From assembly GCA_963674965.2 (NCBI GenBank), contig CAXXFL010000006.1:800001-864000 (forward strand): a stretch of DNA of 64,000 bases, read 5' to 3'. This DNA is from a bacterium. GTDB taxonomy: Bacteria; RBG-13-61-14; DATKZS01. Each line of letters begins with the position of its first letter. Position 1 is the stretch's first letter. This document shows, piece after piece, positions 9,001-24,000 of the stretch. The position numbers are program-made.

Positions 9001-12000
9001 GCGCCCGGCTCAGCTTGATGAAGTAGACCGCCACCAGCTCCACCTGCATGAAGTCCGAGCTCTTGTTGAACACAAAGTCCTGGTAAAGCTGGGCGATGAT
9101 CTTTTCAAAAATCTTTTTTTCATCATCAGACAAGAAGCGGTTGGCGTACATGCCAACCGAGCCCCCGCGCCTTGATTTCACCAGGCGCAGATATCCTCGC
9201 GCCAGAATCGAAGCGATCTCGCCAATCGCCTCGCCACTCCTTTTTTGATCTCCTGAATTCCTCTCCAACTCTTCCTCCTCTCGCGACCCGGCTACGATCA
9301 TCCGGCCCTGGTGGTTATATACCGGACGAGGGGATTATCTGTCGGAGAAAATCCGTCTAGGCCGCCCTGGCACAACCGCCAATACACAAGGGGCGAGTAG
9401 AAGCGAATGGATTTATTCAACTTGTATGGAGATTGTACGAAAGAGAACCTGGTTTTGCGTCTGCACGGAACTGTTAACAAACTCGGCATGTTAAACGGAG
9501 AATGGGAGATTCCGCCGGAGAAAAATTCGGTCAACGGGCGAAACCTTAAGGTCGCAAACGTACCCCGAAAATGTGAGTCGCAAACGGAGAATGGCGATAT
9601 GTGTGAGAGGTCCGCAACCTGGCGGAATTGATTGGAAAAGCCGAAAGCCCCAGGACCTGGTGTCCGGAGGCTCTCCGTAAAAGAAAAAAGCCGCTTTGGT
9701 TCGCGGCTGGATATCTGGCTCCGCAAATGAGACCTCCATAAAGCATGCCCTATAAATGCCGTGTGCAATATCTAGCTGATTTAACAATGGAAAAAGGAAG
9801 AAGGTCGTCTATTCAGCAGTGAAATCAACTCAACACTATTTCTCAAGTGGTATGATTATGTGTTCTTTTAGAAGTCAAGTAGAAATTTTGGGCGGGATTT
9901 ACAGGTCGAAAAGATATTACTTGACAAATCTCTGGCAAGTGGTATATTATAGATATGGTCGGGAAAGGAGATTGCTATGGACTTGCAGATACTCGCTAAA
10001 AACGTGAGACGGCTGAGGACTGCAAAGCGCTTCAGCCAAAAGGCATTGGCTGAAGCAGCGGGGCTATCCCTGCCTGCGGTCAAGAACATGGAACTTGCCA
10101 AAAACGAACCTCGGATGAGAACCATTCAAGCAATCGCCAAGGCGCTTGATGTTAATCTCAGGGAACTCTTTTTGCCGGTAAGGGATTTGCAGACCGTAAG
10201 GTTTCGCTCTACCCGGAAGGTACAGTACCGTGAAAATATCCTGGCAGAGGTGTCCAGATGGCTAGAGGATTTCAATTACCTAGAGGGAACTCTCGGCGAG
10301 AGAATTCCTTTTGAGCTAAAGAAGGTCAGGGTGCGCTGCTCCAATGAGAATATCGTCCGTTCCGCCGAGCTTTGCCGGAAGAAATTGGAACTCTGGGATG
10401 ACGAGCCATTATACGATATCTGCGGATTGCTCGAACATGCAGGTATAAAAGTGCGGTCTGTTCCCATGGCTTCTGATGGTTTTTTCGGATTATCAGTGGG
10501 AGAAAAGGACGGAGGCCCTGCCATAGCAGTAAACGTTTGGGAAAGGATTACCGTTGAGAGGCGGATCTTTAGCGCAGCCCACGAACTCGGTCATCTCATG
10601 CTGCATCCTGACGCCTATGATGTTTCTCAAACTGAGGAAAACAAAAAAGAGGAGCAAGAGGCTGATTTTTTTGCCGGACATTTCATAATGCCGGACAAGG
10701 GATTTCTCAAAGAATGGAATGATGCATCGGGATTGCACTTCGTAGACAGGGTCTTTAAAGTCAAACGAATTTTCCGTGTCAGCTATAAAACCGTTTTGGC
10801 TCGACTCATTGAACACGAAGTCGCGGACAAGTCCATCTGGATGAAATTCAATGTTGCCTATCAGAAACGATTCAATCGAAAACTCGCCTTTAAGGAAGAA
10901 CCAATGGCCATTGACTCCGCTGAGCCATATGGATTACAGCGATTCGATTTTTACGAGGACCGCTTCAGTCGTCTTGTCAGAAAGGCCCTTGAAAAGGACA
11001 AAATTTCTATCAGTCGTGGCGCGGAAATGCTTCACATTGGTATTGAGGAGATGCGGGATCTCCTCGATAATTGGGAGGCTGTTCTTTGACGAAGCGCCAA
11101 CGAAATCCCCAATTGATGATCATGGATGCTTGTGTCCTCATTGATTTCATCAATGCGGACCGAGCTATTCTTCAACTTGTTGTGAAATACGTGGGACCAC
11201 TCCATGTGGCCAGCCCTGTAGTAGACGAAGTCAACCAGATAGATGACGAAAACGAACTTGTCGAGCTTGGTCTTATTATCATTGAGCCCGAAATCGAGGA
11301 TGCCTTTGCCGCAGCCACTCAACCCGGACCGACATCGTTTCAGGACCGACTATGTCTCCTAGCGGCAAAACGGCATGGCTTCACCTGTGTGACCAACGAT
11401 AAAAACCTTCGAAAACTTTGCAAGCAAGAAGGAGTCCCTCTCCTATGGGGCCTTCAGCTTATAGTCGAGCTTCACAAAGCAGGAGGAATCCCCGGAAAAA
11501 GCGCTGAGATGATCGCTCAGACCATAAGAAAATCTAATCCCAAACATATCACGGCCGAGATAGTATCTCGCTTTACGGAGATTATCCGCCGTCAGGAGAG
11601 TCAACGGTCCTAACATTAAAGAGCACTTTCTGTTGGCATCCAATCACTGACATGGGATTGAGAGCTTGTTGGCCTCATCTCTTCAATTGCTTTTATTAAA
11701 TGTTTACTTTTAACGGACATGGACTGTTTGAAAGGCCCTTCAATTATGGCCTCCTTTATGCACAGGACACCAGCGCGTCTACAGATGAAAGCGATCTGGG
11801 CTCCGGAGAGACTGGGAGTTATAGTGGCCAGTTGCGTAAAATCAATGTCCTGGGAGATCTTCATGTTTCTGGTGTGATGTTCGAAAAGAGACTTGCGACC
11901 GGACTTATTTGGTAGGTCCATGTTTACGACCCTGTCGAACCTTCCGGGACGACGAAGCGCGGGATCTATGTCGTTGGGCCGGTTGGTTGTAGCGATCACG

Positions 12001-21000: not shown

Positions 21001-24000
21001 GTCGAGAGATGGGAACAGATAATAATCCCTAATTTGCTCATTGCCCTCTTCCATTCTGACCGCAATGGTTATGTCGGGCCTGAGACCCTCTTCAAATCGC
21101 AGCAGCCAGCGAAGGGCCCCGGCTCCTGTCTGCCGACAGCGAGCCAGGGTTAAGGAAACCAGAAGCTCTCGATTGATCAACAGCAGATCCGATTGCTCGT
21201 CAGTCTCCACTTCCGCGCCATGTTCTTCCAATTGATTGATCACCTCAGCGATCGTTTGCGGATACATCTCCCTCAACCGACGATTGACTTCGATGTAACT
21301 GTAATCGATATCCGGGACGTAACCTATCAGCCGGTAAGCCCGCAACAGGCTGCCGAAGCGATGCTGATACGCTGAAGCCGTGGGCAGTGTTTCAGCCTCA
21401 TCAATCAAAATCCCCGAAAGCCTTCCGTTTTTGAGGTAGACATTTTTCAGCTTTTCCAACATCTCATCATCGCTCAACCTCCGACTGCGAGCCAGGATTA
21501 TGCCCCGAGCAGTAAAGAAAGTCTGCGCTTCAATGATCGGCTCAAAGGCCCCATCCTTGCGAATCCATTCCTCAGGCGGATTTTTCACCCTTGCTATTTT
21601 CAGCTTGTACGACTGACGGTTATAAACGTTGTTGCCAATGTACTTTTCATTGGTCAGAATCTGCCGTATGGGACCCCGCTTCCAGGGGCGCTGATGATCG
21701 TTTAATATTTTTCGGTCATTGAAAATAGCGGCTATCTCACCTTCATTCTTGCCTTCATGAACAAAAAGCCGAAACATCTCTCGGACATTTGCCACTTCTT
21801 CGGAAGGGCCGGGAGTCAGAATCACCCGGTCAGTCTGGAGGCTTTTGTGCTCGCCCATCTTCAACTCGCCCTTCACCTGTCCGCTGCTGTCCACCAACAC
21901 TCGACGCAGGCCGTAACCAGCCGTGCCACCCTGGCGAAATCCCAGCTTCACCAGGTTCGACGCGCCATGGAAAACCTTGCCAGACAACTCCCGGCTATAC
22001 TCCGCGGCCATGGAGCGCTTTACTCCTTTGACGATTGTTGAAATGGGGCTGCCGTCGTTTTCAAATAGCTCCGCGCAATATTTGATCTTGACCCCAGCTC
22101 TTTTGCAGACGTATTCATAATGAGCGCTCTCATCCGCATCCTGAAATCTGCCCCAGCGGGAAACGTCATATACCAGTATCTCCTCAAATGCTGCCTGCCC
22201 GCTTTCGACATCGCGCAGAAGCTTCGCGAGAGAATCTCGGCCTTCAATATTCAGACCGCTCTTACCTTCATCAGAATAGATCTCTATAATCTCGTAATTG
22301 TGGTGCTCGGCATACTGTCTGATGATCTCAAGCTGGTTGTCTGCGCTGTATTGCTGATGTTCGGTGGACATGCGCACATAAGCGGCAGCGGGAATGGACT
22401 TGTCGCGTGGCGGCTGTCCTGTTCGGCCGTTTGTCATTATTTACCTCTCTGAGAAATGTTAATAGAGCTTGTATTTGTTCTCGGCAGAACAGCTTAAGGT
22501 TGGGATGAGCCTGCAAATCTTAAGCGGGTCGCTTTCTGGAACTTCACGCGACCCCGAAATGAGAGTACTGCTCTAAAATAACAACTACACTTGTTAACCA
22601 AAGGCATTTGCTCTCTGTACGGAGAATCTAAACAGAGAGCAACCGTTTACAAAAAACAGGAGGATTGACTTTTGCCAATCCTCTCTAACTATCCTTGGTT
22701 CTTTCCCTTCACTTTTTTTATTAGCAATATTAGCAATCTATAACTTGACCCCAAAGGGGTTTCACTTGTTAACCTCAAACTAAATAGAGCGTGCTATTTA
22801 GTTGGCTCCTGGGGAGGGATTCGAACCCCCTGATAAGCTCATTAAATATTCGTATAATCAGGGACAAGAAACCCCTTATCCCGGACAATTTAGTGAAAAA
22901 CCAGGCCAAGATCAAGAAGTTAAAAAATCCTCTCCTGTAAAGGGCCGGACACATACTGTAAAAACCATATCATACGAAGGTAAAATAAAGGACCGTAATT
23001 TTCACGGTTCCGCCCATAACCGGCCCGGATCCGAAAAGGCCATAAATGAAAAGCTTGACTCTAACCTTGCTCTGGTCCTTGATGCTTGGCCTACGCTCCC
23101 TCATGCGATACGGGCAGGGATCGTGGCAATAGTGAGGGCCACGGCGCAACCAGCGCCCACGGGACGGCGCGAAACCAAGGGAGGCAAGGGAGATGCCTAG
23201 CCGCGGCCGGATCGCCGCCCTGGGCCGTCCTGGGCGTCCGGTACGATACGGAAATCGGAAAGTGAAGGGGGCAATGCCCACTGCAAGGGAACAAGCTGAA
23301 GCTGGAGGACAAAGATGAAAAAGAAGGACAAGAAGGGACTGGCAAGGACAACGAAAAAGGAAGACGCCAAGCTCGCCGTGACCGCATACACCGACGAGGA
23401 AAGGGCGATCATCTCCAGGGCCGCGGAACGAAGAAATAATCCGCCCCCCAAATACATAGAGGGAGAATCGAAAGGGAGGCATCTGAGTATTGCCCTCCCC
23501 AAAGAGAAACCTCACCTTGTACACGCAAAAATTGCTTTGGCATTGGGGACAGTGGATAATTCCACCGAAACCTTTCTTCTAAATCAAGCAATCCAGAGTT
23601 TCCCCGACTCCGTTCCAGGAATAGACCGCGTGAACATCACCGCGGCGCTGATGTATGGAATAGCGCCTGATAACGAGGTGGAGGGAATGCTCGGCCTTCA
23701 GATGGTCGCCACCCACAACTTGGCGATGGAGCTATTGGGCCGCGCCATGAGATATGATTGCTGGGACGCGACCCGCGACGGCGTCAACATGGCCACGAAG
23801 CTGCTCCGGACTTACAAGGCCCAGATGGAGGCCCTGAACCGGAACCGGGGCAAGTCCCCAAGCCAGAAGGTGACGGTCGAGCACGTCCACGTGAACGCGG
23901 GCGGCCAGGCCATTGTGGGCAACGTCGAGAGAACGCCCACCGGGAGGGGGAAGGAGGGGGGTGATGCCAAAAAGTGAGGAACCACCCCTTGCTATGCACC

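Follow-up and report, generated by a model that had tools for sequence, protein, structure and literature searches.

A putatively mobile three-gene module with a predicted Ku-like pair and a ligase-AAA+ fusion protein: a candidate bacterial DNA end-joining system

Three adjacent genes on the minus strand (11616-16089) of a 64,000-nucleotide stretch of bacterial DNA, hereafter the window, encode two small proteins with a predicted Ku fold and a 1,028-aa protein that joins a DNA ligase to a Cdc48-type AAA+ module, and we consider it somewhat probable that this trio is a compact machine that binds and joins DNA ends. If the predicted fold is right, the trio would be an unrecognised bacterial DNA end-joining machine, organised as a putatively mobile three-gene unit with a built-in p97-type protein puller. 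The predicted Ku pair turns what had stood as "function unknown" into a specific hypothesis, namely that DNA ends are bound and joined. The observation made in a preliminary description of this DNA was confirmed, and its interpretation as a whole was partly supported.

Two small proteins with a predicted Ku fold

The first two genes of the trio encode Ku-like A (15406..16089, minus strand; 227 aa, or 224 aa if translation starts at M4) and Ku-like B (14699..15424, minus strand; 241 aa from a GTG start, annotated as 236 aa). These had been described as two small proteins of no known family, which holds for Pfam (nothing at E<=0.01 for either protein) but not for structure searches, in which both are predicted Ku-fold proteins. 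The AF2 models of Ku-like A (pLDDT 81.1) and Ku-like B (pLDDT 79.9) were built from alignments of 41 and 42 sequences, respectively, that are independent of each other. In a Foldseek search of the PDB at E<=0.001, Ku-like A gave 6 matches, all of them Ku, led by Mycobacterium tuberculosis Ku (9i91_A, E 7.6e-5, prob 1.00), and Ku-like B gave 54 matches (best E 3.6e-6), the best 41 of which were all Ku70/80 or bacterial Ku. The TM-scores of these matches were low (0.33-0.49), which counts against the Ku reading. Using VIA-align against 48,161 chains, M. tuberculosis Ku ranked first for both proteins: Ku-like A aligned to 9i91_A with Z 10.5 (180 aligned residues, rmsd 11.1) and to Bacillus subtilis Ku with Z 10.4 (162 aligned, rmsd 6.9), and Ku-like B aligned to M. 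tuberculosis Ku with Z 12.2 (114 aligned, rmsd 3.0), to Ku80 with Z 12.0 and to B. subtilis Ku with Z 11.4. In BFVD, Ku-like B reached prob 1.00 with two phage Ku proteins only, the top matches being "Ku protein [Mycobacterium phage Dylan]" and a Caudovirales Ku homologue. Ku proteins headed the matches in each structure library that was searched.

The Ku assignment comes from predicted structures and no sequence method linked either protein to Ku, which counts against the end-joining reading: PDB profile searches with both proteins returned nothing under E 0.4, and hhalign against four canonical Ku proteins gave a probability under 1%. No similarity was found between Ku-like A and Ku-like B. 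In favour of the end-joining reading, canonical Ku (PF02735) occurs neither in this genome (G000) nor in any of the 13 genomes of the phylum.

The two proteins are also predicted to form a heterodimer. The modelled pair reached an ipSAE of 0.76, compared with 0.00 for the best of three controls, and the ipSAE mark applied is one passed by 116 of 157 solved complexes and by 2 of 215 mismatched pairs. At least 80% of the contacts agreed between runs, the partner had a pLDDT of at least 74, and the interface of 327-374 contacts takes in loops that are uncertain in the monomer models. This result may in part reflect likeness to solved Ku dimers. The C terminus of Ku-like A is an acidic tip of the approximate form D-[DE]-L-D-F-x-x-[LMF], as judged by eye from alignment A4.

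A complete ligase fused to a single AAA+ module

The third gene (window 11616-14702, minus strand) encodes a complete ATP-dependent DNA ligase, a middle region some 390 residues long and a single AAA+ module of the Cdc48/p97 type. The earlier reading of this protein as a ligase fused to a Cdc48-type ATPase was borne out by Pfam, which placed DNA_ligase_A_M at residues 43-214, DNA_ligase_A_C at 238-357, AAA at 802-929 and AAA_lid_3 at 952-986. The nucleotidyltransferase and OB domain (PF01068, PF04679) occupy residues 1-360 (13623..14702, minus strand), and in an alignment of 28 sequences the ligase motifs I (K64xD66G67), III (G111-E112), IIIa (F144..D148), IV (E207-G208), V (K220xK222) and VI (R354xD356K357) were all invariant, as they were across 10 more distant family members. 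The top NCBIfam ligase model was NHEJ_ligase_lig (TIGR02779, E 1.4e-22); as reported before, no NCBIfam model reached its cut-off (CDC48, 257 vs 802; NHEJ_ligase_lig, 80 vs 228). Pfam found neither a polymerase nor a phosphoesterase domain of the kind present in LigD, a point against the end-joining reading.

The middle region (residues 361-750; 12453..13622, minus strand) was assigned to no family by profile searches and alignment: the best Pfam match was only E 0.11, a 35-sequence profile found no sequence match in the PDB at E<=10, and an Atlas search gave no usable match. Its first part (residues 361-470) is a 110-residue extension common to the fusion proteins and the stand-alone ligases of the family, and its second part (residues 471-750) carries four cysteines, C605, C617, C625 and C679, that are invariant in the 28 sequences. 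Residues 751-1028 (11616..12452, minus strand) form a single classic-clade AAA+ module with its lid, as judged from motifs and PDB relatives. Walker A (G806-T813) is invariant, so that the invariance described earlier for KxDG, Walker A and the four cysteines holds in 28 sequences, and Walker B (D865-E866), N907, the arginine fingers R918/R921 and the pore loop K838-W-F-G841 are conserved in the same alignment. The nearest solved structures were those of Cdc48/p97/VAT (E about 1e-121), with PAN at 2e-62.

Residues 1-750 matched 128 clusters at E<=0.001; the family is conserved, as had been proposed, and larger than the 58 clusters first counted. Among the 120 clusters listed, all matched at E<=1e-146 and 112 carried PF00004, while the other 8 were 585-862 aa long and had no AAA domain. 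Public sources name the fusion proteins "AAA family ATPase" or not at all, as the preliminary description had said. The fusion proteins make up a sub-branch of a far larger family; in a sister group that outnumbers them, a lone ligase of about 450-480 aa, with no AAA+ module, follows the same Ku-like pair. Stand-alone ligases of 430-560 aa made up 103 of the 150 best representatives of the ligase family, and two members carry a domain inserted inside the ligase, TIR in P0127 and DUF4062 in P0170.

Gene order and distribution of the trio

In the window, adjacent genes of the trio overlap by 4 and 19 bases, the 4-base overlap being that of the Ku-like B stop with the ligase start. Ku-like B lay directly upstream of the ligase in 64 of the 66 metagenome loci with room for it, and Ku-like A was kept in the order A, B, ligase in 48/49 (with L150 and L153, where both genes are present, taken into the counts), in agreement with the earlier statement that the ligase-AAA gene travels with two small genes. 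Both Ku-like genes accompanied the ligase in 12/13 loci from Planctomycetota genomes. Occurrence was patchy, with the trio in 11 of 401 sampled Planctomycetota genomes and in 1 of 13 genomes of the host phylum. As to selection, the trio is intact in both genomic copies, with dN/dS values of 0.15-0.44.

A putative end-joining mechanism

On balance we lean towards an end-joining module carried on mobile elements, in which the unfoldase may strip a trapped Ku ring from the sealed DNA. Ku-like A and Ku-like B, whose fold and dimer are predicted, would pair by way of intertwined arms into a heterodimer that binds the ends of double-stranded DNA. The N-terminal LigD-like ligase, the motifs of which are intact, would be brought to the DNA end and seal it, perhaps recruited through the conserved acidic tip at the C terminus of Ku-like A and through the 110-residue ligase extension. 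By analogy, the C-terminal AAA+ module may hexamerise and thread a polypeptide by way of its W/Y-hydrophobic-Gly pore loop, and the most economical client, again by analogy, would be the Ku-like ring, topologically trapped on DNA after sealing. In eukaryotes p97/VCP acts in this way on Ku70/80: a review describes Ku as remaining trapped on DNA after ligation and VCP/p97 as removing it (PMC8073936). Since most of the ligase family lacks the AAA+ module, ring removal cannot be essential to the core mechanism. What ties the AAA+ module to the Ku-like proteins is gene order alone. The carrier of the module, be it a mobile element or a prophage, would be the likely beneficiary: it could close its own DNA into a circle again or mend that DNA, or the DNA of the host, after breaks made for example by restriction enzymes. 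The mobile context of the trio, among recombinase modules and phage packaging genes, speaks for end joining on mobile elements. Serine recombinases do not need end joining, which counts against the end-joining reading.

The trio resembles bacterial NHEJ (a Ku homodimer with LigD) in that the gene of a predicted Ku-fold end binder stands next to that of an ATP-dependent ligase, in that the ligase has the LigD ligase domain as its best NCBIfam match, and in its patchy, horizontally spread distribution. It differs in having two unrelated-looking Ku-fold genes, predicted to give a heterodimer, instead of one homodimeric Ku; in that its Ku-like proteins are invisible to PF02735; and in a ligase that has the 110-residue extension, the Cys-rich region and the AAA+ module in place of polymerase and phosphoesterase domains. 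In bringing together a predicted Ku heterodimer, a ligase and an unfoldase of the Cdc48/p97 type, the trio recalls eukaryotic Ku70/80, DNA ligase IV and p97/VCP; in the trio, however, ligase and unfoldase are one polypeptide, the single AAA module has neither the p97 N domain nor a second ring (TIGR01243, 257 vs 802), and there is no ubiquitin system, vWA domain or SAP domain. Mycobacteriophage Ku and Mu Gam are likewise Ku-fold proteins, carried by phages, and the trio is found beside terminase and integrase genes. To our knowledge, the phage Ku proteins described are single genes that borrow the host LigD, whereas the element studied here brings its own ligase and ATPase.

Alternative explanations

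The main rival to end joining is anti-phage or anti-plasmid defence, in which the Ku-like pair would sense the free ends of incoming linear DNA and the ligase-AAA+ protein would serve as effector, a part that TIR or DUF4062 would take in the sister forms. It might block or mis-join the ends of the invader, unfold a phage protein or trigger abortive infection. We regard defence as a rather unlikely but serious possibility. The ligase family swaps modules as effectors do (AAA+ fused, TIR inserted, DUF4062 inserted, or neither), and the TIR-bearing variants in particular favour defence. Of 84 neighbouring ORFs from 25 loci, 12 matched PADLOC defence models at E<=1e-10; immediately downstream of the ligase-AAA gene, L121 and L122/L123 have type III and type I restriction-modification genes, and AbiE occurs in L112 and SoFic in L119. 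Together with the TIR and DUF4062 insertions, these neighbours point to a conflict system and not to housekeeping repair. A RosmerTA-like pair on the same 12.7-kb unit, the patchy distribution, two copies in L101 and several paralogues on one contig (P0051, P0054, P0056 and P0062 each list a longest contig of 3,299,272) also fit defence. The AAA core matches IetA, the AAA+ partner of the protease IetS in the IetAS system, both in PADLOC (best E 4.8e-31) and in NCBIfam ("anti-phage ATPase IteA", E 1.8e-28). However, this match is limited to the generic AAA core (residues 773-1006), no family member was found as a PADLOC system, and no protease partner was found in the window, nor an S8 protease in its unit; subtilases lie near the trio in only 2/25 loci (L097 and L101). 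Every ligase motif, motif VI included, remains invariant also in the variants with TIR or DUF4062; selection therefore seems to favour real ligation chemistry, which is unusual for a pure sensor. Genomic context does not discriminate between defence and end joining, since morons by a prophage integrase and selfish functions of an element occupy the same places. Around the trio stood serine-recombinase modules, genes for prophage packaging and genes for restriction or abortive infection. Its neighbours in L102, L130, L118, L154 and the viral contig L170 include terminase, portal or Mu-F genes, and terminase and integrase genes are beside it in L102, L130 and L170.

It is very improbable that the barrels are SPOC-like protein-binding adaptors instead of DNA rings, in a system that acts on proteins or RNA and whose nucleotidyltransferase would adenylylate or ligate something other than DNA ends. 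SPOC domains have the barrel in common with both proteins (VIA-align Z 7.4-8.1 for Ku-like A and 10.1-10.5 for Ku-like B), and the missing sequence link to Ku and a weak Pfam RNA_ligase match (E 0.0073) would suit this explanation. Ku nevertheless outranks SPOC for both proteins in both aligners, and the Foldseek matches shown at E<=0.001 were Ku only (for Ku-like B, the best 41 of 54). Ku-like A aligns over 162-180 residues to bacterial Ku and over only about 97-107 to SPOC, and the insert beyond its barrel is therefore Ku-like; a DNA ligase fits both the OB domain with its motif VI and the fact that an NHEJ ligase domain matches best.

Least likely of all is a role as accessory of the neighbouring large serine recombinase, in which the unfoldase would strip recombinase stuck covalently on DNA broken by failed or abortive recombination and the ligase would reseal it: the module of DUF2924 protein, recombinase and 139-aa protein does stand beside the trio in the window, in L170 and, in varying order and on either strand, in 14 metagenome loci (11 of the 26 that extend 4 kb or more past the trio, plus 3 shorter ones), but 15 of those 26 loci and the available sequence of the six short-form metagenome loci contain no recombinase, the trio of the second copy is intact though its adjoining recombinase is destroyed, and there is no phosphodiesterase to release the phosphoserine link. 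The proposal that the trio travels with a recombinase accordingly holds as a frequent, not an obligatory, association.

The repeated unit and its other genes

The trio lies within a 12.7-kb unit (window 9702..22457) that recurs at C2:31792-46776. That the unit is present twice, as first described, was upheld by blastn, which aligned the copies in four blocks at 93-97% identity with sharp ends, and by Logan contigs (two runs, one sample), in which the repeat had about twice the depth of the unique stretches 18019-19020 and 22528-23500. The term "discrete element" suits its sharp ends and its two places, but the unit is a mosaic, since dS between the copies is 0.25-0.29 in the part with the 519-aa recombinase and ParB/RepB genes and 0.04-0.12 elsewhere, and the C2 copy is decayed. 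The latter carries two insertions of one 1,663-bp IS (24 near-full copies in the genome), one splitting the 180-aa ORF and the other the 522-aa recombinase, and lacks the equivalent of window 17714-18809, the segment that encodes recombinase residues 1-150 and carries the DUF2924 gene. For the unit, neither att repeats nor an empty site nor a circular form was found.

Two large serine recombinases, not the one reported, are encoded on the unit. The first (522 aa; 16603..18171, minus strand), which is IS-split and truncated in the C2 copy, has Resolvase, Recombinase and Zn_ribbon_recom domains, and its partner is a 174-aa DUF2924 protein (18111..18635, minus strand; PF11149, E 1.6e-38), the gene of which adjoins the recombinase in related loci. 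The 139-aa protein (16159..16578, minus strand) has no Pfam family and, on a reading of its sequence, may resemble a ParB-type helix-turn-helix; tblastn placed it beside genes like that of the 522-aa recombinase in 11 metagenome loci (L092, L100, L111-113, L116, L119-121, L123 and L130). The second recombinase (519 aa; 20878..22437, minus strand; Resolvase and Recombinase domains) has its start codon 20 bases inside the right repeat end (22457). Two ParB/RepB-like genes (294 and 297 aa; 19101..20875, minus strand; PF07506, PF02195) are retained in L092 at 77-79% identity. At the left end, the RosmerTA-like pair (9977..11613, plus strand) consists of a 370-aa HTH-M78 protein (Pfam HTH_3 and Peptidase_M78), matched by 15 PADLOC RmrA models (best E 2.2e-31), and an overlapping 180-aa ORF with a sub-threshold PIN match alone (E 2.5e-4).

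A third, fragmentary copy adds to the two places described before. At 6913..7568, sequence corresponding to window 13178-13588 (100% identical) is joined to that of 15364-15611 (94%); the joint recurs in contigs of runs X1 and X2, and the remnant supplies the N-terminal part of a chimeric ORF (6227-7366, minus strand) that has a RhuM domain.

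Gene organization of the repeated unit

We lean, narrowly, toward reading the trio of a 227-aa protein (Ku-like A), a 241-aa protein (Ku-like B) and a 1,028-aa ligase-AAA+ protein as an unrecognized Ku-ligase end-joining module that occurs widely among uncultured bacteria and on their mobile elements. The preliminary description had observed a ligase-AAA+ fusion with two small genes on a repeated unit, and this observation was confirmed; its framing stood for the repeated unit and the ligase/AAA+ fusion and is sharpened here by the predicted Ku fold of the small pair. The unit (window 9702-22457) contains eleven ORFs in all. 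On the minus strand lie a 519-aa large serine recombinase with resolvase and recombinase domains (LSR519; 20878-22437), two ParB/RepB-like genes (19982-20875 and 19101-19985), a DUF2924 gene (18111-18635) and a 522-aa large serine recombinase with resolvase, recombinase and zinc-ribbon domains (16603-18171). The recombinase is followed on the same strand by a 139-aa ORF (16159-16578) that belongs to no family, shows a ParB-like helix-turn-helix stretch by eye, and adjoins the recombinase in 11 metagenome loci by tblastn. The genes for Ku-like A (15406-16089), Ku-like B (14699-15424) and the ligase-AAA+ protein (11616-14702), all on the minus strand, overlap by 19 and 4 bases and are therefore read as a single operon. 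Convergent with the minus-strand genes, a plus-strand gene encodes an HTH-M78 protein (9977-11089) matched by 15 PADLOC models of RmrA (best E 2.2e-31), which we take to be the antitoxin of the RosmerTA system; the 180-aa ORF that overlaps it (11071-11613, plus strand) has a PIN match below threshold only. By sequence, these two genes (9977-11613, plus strand) look like a RosmerTA-like pair.

The ligase-AAA+ protein and its family

The ligase and AAA+ domains described earlier for the 1,028-aa protein were recovered with Pfam (PF01068, PF04679) and NCBIfam, the curated cut-offs being unreached. All ligase motifs are invariant among 28 aligned members (I, K64xDG; III, GE112; IIIa; IV, E207G; V, K220xK222; VI, R354xDK; numbering of the 1,028-aa protein) and also in 10 distant members, and the same 28 members share an invariant Walker A, Walker B, N907, R918/R921 and four middle-region Cys, with a W/Y-hydrophobic-G pore loop. 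As in LigD, the ATP-dependent ligase domain is complete for motifs I, III, IIIa, IV, V and VI, but Pfam finds neither a polymerase nor a phosphoesterase domain, and the LigD models score below their cut-offs (TIGR02779, 80.3 against 227.75; TIGR02776, 66.6 against 373.2). The AAA module has GPPGTGKT, DE, KWFG and R918/R921 all in place, and its nearest solved relatives are Cdc48/p97/VAT (E about 1e-121, PDB), with which it shares the classic-clade features of Walker A/B, an aromatic-hydrophobic-Gly pore loop and the second region of homology. Whereas those proteins have an N domain and two tandem AAA rings, there is one AAA module here (residues 802-986), and TIGR01243 scores 257 against a cut-off of 802. 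In contrast to IetAS, the IetA models match the AAA core only and no IetS subtilase partner occurs among the unit ORFs, as Pfam finds a peptidase S8 domain in 0 of the 11. The ligase is predicted to be catalytically complete and of the NHEJ type, and in the form in the window it is fused to a p97-type unfoldase. The middle region (residues 361-750) gave no PDB profile match at E<=10, no Pfam match to any of 35 middle regions fell below E 0.11, and residues 360-750 had no usable match in Atlas.

Residues 1-750 match 128 clusters. Identity to the query is 36-56% among the 120 listed, of which 112 have an AAA domain; the few names in the sources are 'AAA family ATPase' and similar, from Deltaproteobacteria, Armatimonadota and Planctomycetota. 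A contig scan with the full-length alignment was dominated by the generic AAA pattern (a true relative in 1 of 80 loci, L009), and the alignment for later scans was restricted to the N-terminal part. An exhaustive search with residues 1-750 gave 233 representatives at E<=1e-30. The best 150 of these include 5 full-length fusions and 103 proteins of 430-560 aa that match residues about 10-470, with KxDG in 95 of the 103 and Walker A in 1. Since such short ligases predominate among the best 150, the fusion is a branch of a stand-alone ligase family, whose stand-alone members carry a specific 110-residue C-terminal extension. In two representatives, another domain is inserted within the nucleotidyltransferase domain after motif I or III, namely a TIR domain (residues 117-236 of P0127) and DUF4062 (residues 125-206 of P0170), and the catalytic motifs are all kept. 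Four further family members (P0209, P0242, P0244 and P0245) have an N-terminal extension of 200-290 residues that is matched by neither Pfam nor the Ku-like profiles. The HMMs of both Ku-like families found no match in 144 ligase representatives.

Spread and genomic neighborhood of the trio

We gathered 78 metagenome loci. Ku-like B lies directly upstream of the ligase in 64 of the 66 loci with room for it, and Ku-like A is in place in 48 of 49, counts that include L150 and L153, where both genes were seen, and that are not independent, because some loci are near-duplicates (e.g., L119/L120, L110/L111 and L122/L123). The true exceptions to this order are L136 and L161. L161 and L162 had been considered as a Ku-like A-ligase fusion, and this candidate was rejected, as the weak match to Ku-like A (E 3.7e-6) lies in the frame of the ligase match and overlaps it. 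Both Ku-like genes also accompany the short-form, stand-alone ligase (6 of 6 loci). In the Planctomycetota sample the ligase was found in 11 of 401 genomes, with both Ku-like genes in 12 of 13 loci, the 13th beginning at a contig end. Of the 13 genomes of the host phylum, none but that of the window has the ligase. Nothing matched in the phage collection, the plasmids yielded a single weak match (ligase only, 27% identity), and the viral contig scan yielded one locus, L170, in which a methylase, a terminase and a serine recombinase adjoin the trio.

The gene order of the window is kept in L092 from the C-terminal end of LSR519, within which the locus starts, to the ligase-AAA gene, at 53-83% protein identity; the RosmerTA-like pair is absent from this locus. 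Among the 26 loci whose flank spans 4 kb or more, 11 have a DUF2924-recombinase module, with or without the 139-aa ORF, beside the trio; 3 shorter loci have it too, and the module differs between loci in order and strand. Neighbor scans covered 84 ORFs from 25 loci, after antisense shadow ORF clusters (c4, c7, c8, c11 and c21) had been left out. By Pfam, prophage genes near the trio include terminase (L102 and L130), portal (L118) and Mu F (L154) genes; tyrosine integrases occur in L165, and other neighbors are amidoligase/GATase pairs, AbiE, Fic, a LexA-like repressor, and type I and type III restriction-modification genes. PADLOC matched 12 of the 84 neighbor ORFs at E<=1e-10. Directly upstream of the short-form trio in L150 (1632-8642) are genes for a MoxR-type AAA_5 ATPase, a DUF2201 VWA-metallopeptidase and a 1,540-aa protein with DUF285 repeats, LRR and a BRCT domain; L153 has the same upstream arrangement, and these two near-identical loci hint that an ATPase partner of the trio recurs. 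A gene for a LEM-3-like GIY-YIG nuclease was observed directly downstream of a short-form ligase (L167:3545-4381).

A serious alternative is that the trio is a defense system, as would suit the TIR and DUF4062 insertions in the ligase family, the defense genes among the neighbors and the patchy spread. The invariant ligase motifs argue for selected ligation and so speak against it; their invariance points to real ligation being under selection whichever reading is correct. If the trio does serve in defense, it would add to the known immune sensors a new class that detects DNA ends.

The second copy and possible mobility of the unit

The repeated unit of the preliminary description was borne out, window 9702-22457 being 93-97% identical to C2:31792-46776 on another contig of the same genome, and the repeat has about twice the depth in contigs from two runs of one sample. 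The C2 copy has undergone decay: a 1,663-bp IS, of which there are 24 near-full genomic copies on all seven contigs, interrupts the 180-aa ORF and the 522-aa recombinase (C2:43408-45070 and C2:35619-37281), and this copy has no counterpart of window 17714-18809, which holds the DUF2924 gene together with residues 1-150 of the recombinase. C2 retains undamaged the 139-aa ORF, the whole trio, the HTH-M78 gene and the three genes at the right-hand end. Between the two copies, dN/dS is 0.03-0.44, and the three right-hand genes have a dS of 0.25-0.29, compared with 0.04-0.12 elsewhere in the unit, a contrast indicating that the unit is a mosaic. The view that the trio is a helper of the recombinase is weakened by these data, since the C2 trio is intact beside a destroyed recombinase, and by the many loci that have no recombinase.

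A third fragment of the unit, at window 6913-7568, is fused to a RhuM-domain ORF. The resulting chimeric 379-aa ORF (6227-7366, minus strand) has the RhuM-family domain at its C-terminus, while its N-terminus derives from part of the ligase middle region (residues 369-509, 99% identity). The unit has ATCTGGCTCC at its left junction in common with a paralogous flank at C2:102097, and the junction comparison found no repeat at the right end. Neither a circular junction nor an empty-site joint was seen in the sequencing-run contigs, which as contigs cannot show absence, and the sole joint in them was that of the remnant copy. Mobility of the unit is plausible. The flanks at window 8438-9722 and 5001-6076 recur at C6:967581-968297, C2:102097-102665 and C6:902154-903229; because they are themselves repeated, the unit is placed within a patchwork of repeated DNA. 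Window 24495-45800 (minus strand) is occupied by a single ORF of 7,101 aa, whose CARDB, bacterial Ig-like, FG-GAP and F5/8-type-C domains give its product the look of a giant surface protein; giant Ig-domain proteins also adjoin the trio in L092 (2,894 aa) and L094 (2,672 aa).

Predicted Ku fold of the two small proteins

The 227-aa and 241-aa proteins have no match in Pfam (E<=0.01), NCBIfam or PADLOC. Their structures were predicted from homologue alignments built from related loci, with a pLDDT of 79.9 for the 241-aa protein (n=42) and 81.1 for the 227-aa protein (n=41). Using Foldseek on the PDB, the 241-aa model gave 54 matches at E<=0.001, all 41 of those shown being eukaryotic or bacterial Ku (best E 3.6e-6), and the 227-aa model gave six matches at the same threshold, all six Ku, the best being M. 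tuberculosis Ku (7.6e-5). The independent aligner VIA-align, run on 48,161 chains, gave Z scores for the 241-aa model of 12.2 to M. tuberculosis Ku, 12.0 to Ku80 and 11.4 to B. subtilis Ku, with 10.1-10.5 to SPOC; for the 227-aa model it gave 10.5 and 10.4 to the two bacterial Ku proteins (180 and 162 residues aligned), with 7.4-8.1 to SPOC. A reading of the small proteins as SPOC-like adaptors is weakened, in that the structural matches rank Ku above SPOC and the alignment to bacterial Ku is longer. The only two BFVD matches at prob 1.00 were 'Ku protein [Mycobacterium phage Dylan]' and a Caudovirales Ku homologue. Some mycobacteriophages, Corndog and Omega among them, recircularize their genomes with a Ku of their own, and the existence of phage Ku proteins is supported by these BFVD matches.

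According to the models, both small proteins have the Ku beta-barrel core with an inserted arm. By profile, the two are unlike each other (hhalign of the two family alignments, no signal) and unlike four canonical Ku proteins (hhalign probability under 1% for either family); a PDB profile search gave SigJ only for Ku-like B (E 2) and two matches only for Ku-like A (E 0.43 and 1.6). The C-terminus of Ku-like A is an acidic tip, roughly D-[DE]-L-D-F-x-x-[LMF], in alignment rows of long and short forms judged by eye. The predicted Ku-like A/B heterodimer reached an ipSAE of 0.76 (best control, 0.00), although it may lean on likeness to solved Ku dimers; this mark was reached in 116 of 157 solved complexes and in 2 of 215 mismatched pairs. 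At least 80% of the contacts agreed between runs, partner pLDDT was at least 74, and the interface comprised 327-374 contacts, including arm loops that are uncertain in the monomer models. No longer, fused forms of the 241-aa protein were found, which is weak evidence. These models predict two Ku-fold proteins that would dimerize, encoded in a conserved operon on mobile DNA.

A possible end-joining circuit and its implications

In an end-joining module of this kind, the Ku-like pair would bind double-stranded DNA ends and recruit the ligase, which would seal the held ends; by analogy, the unfoldase may then pull off a Ku ring that is unable to slide from closed DNA. According to a review (PMC8073936) that cites van den Boom et al. 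2016, VCP/p97 takes off the Ku that ligation has left trapped. More tentatively, and by this analogy, the trio could be a self-contained bacterial or mobile-element counterpart of the eukaryotic Ku70/80-ligase IV-p97 circuit, in which a Ku ring holds the ends and one polypeptide seals them and then extracts the ring; we regard this fuller proposal as less likely than not. Because most of the family lacks the AAA+ module, ring removal cannot be essential to the core. If ring extraction does occur, the trio would provide the first heterodimeric Ku from a prokaryote to fall outside the Pfam family, and would explain for the first time how sealed DNA is freed of a Ku ring in a cell without ubiquitin. 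The ligase-unfoldase fusion makes ubiquitin-free removal of the Ku ring testable with three proteins, and a compact, self-cleaning end-joining module could also serve as a tool.

Bacterial NHEJ surveys count Ku by its Pfam model, which the small-protein family escapes although it is large: the Ku-like B profile matches 1,134 clusters at E<=0.001, with a Pfam domain in 0 of the 120 listed. If the fold prediction is true, end-joining capacity has been under-counted in bacteria and mobile elements. Full-text search of open-access main texts, which leaves an earlier description possible, found no paper on the ligase-AAA+ fusion or a cryptic Ku pair. In two NHEJ surveys searched by term, 'AAA' and 'heterodimer' are both absent (PMC7719229), or 'AAA' is absent and 'heterodimer' refers to eukaryotic Ku (PMC11936186).

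Canonical Ku (PF02735) was found neither in the genome of the window nor in 13 genomes of the host phylum. In the Planctomycetota sample it occurs in 56 of 401 genomes, none of them among the 11 that bear the trio; as about 1.5 overlaps are expected by chance, this zero says nothing either way. Six of the 56 Ku-bearing genomes (G072, G097, G190, G232, G294 and G417) have canonical Ku genes as adjacent tandem pairs on one contig, suggesting that heteromeric Ku may not be rare in bacteria.
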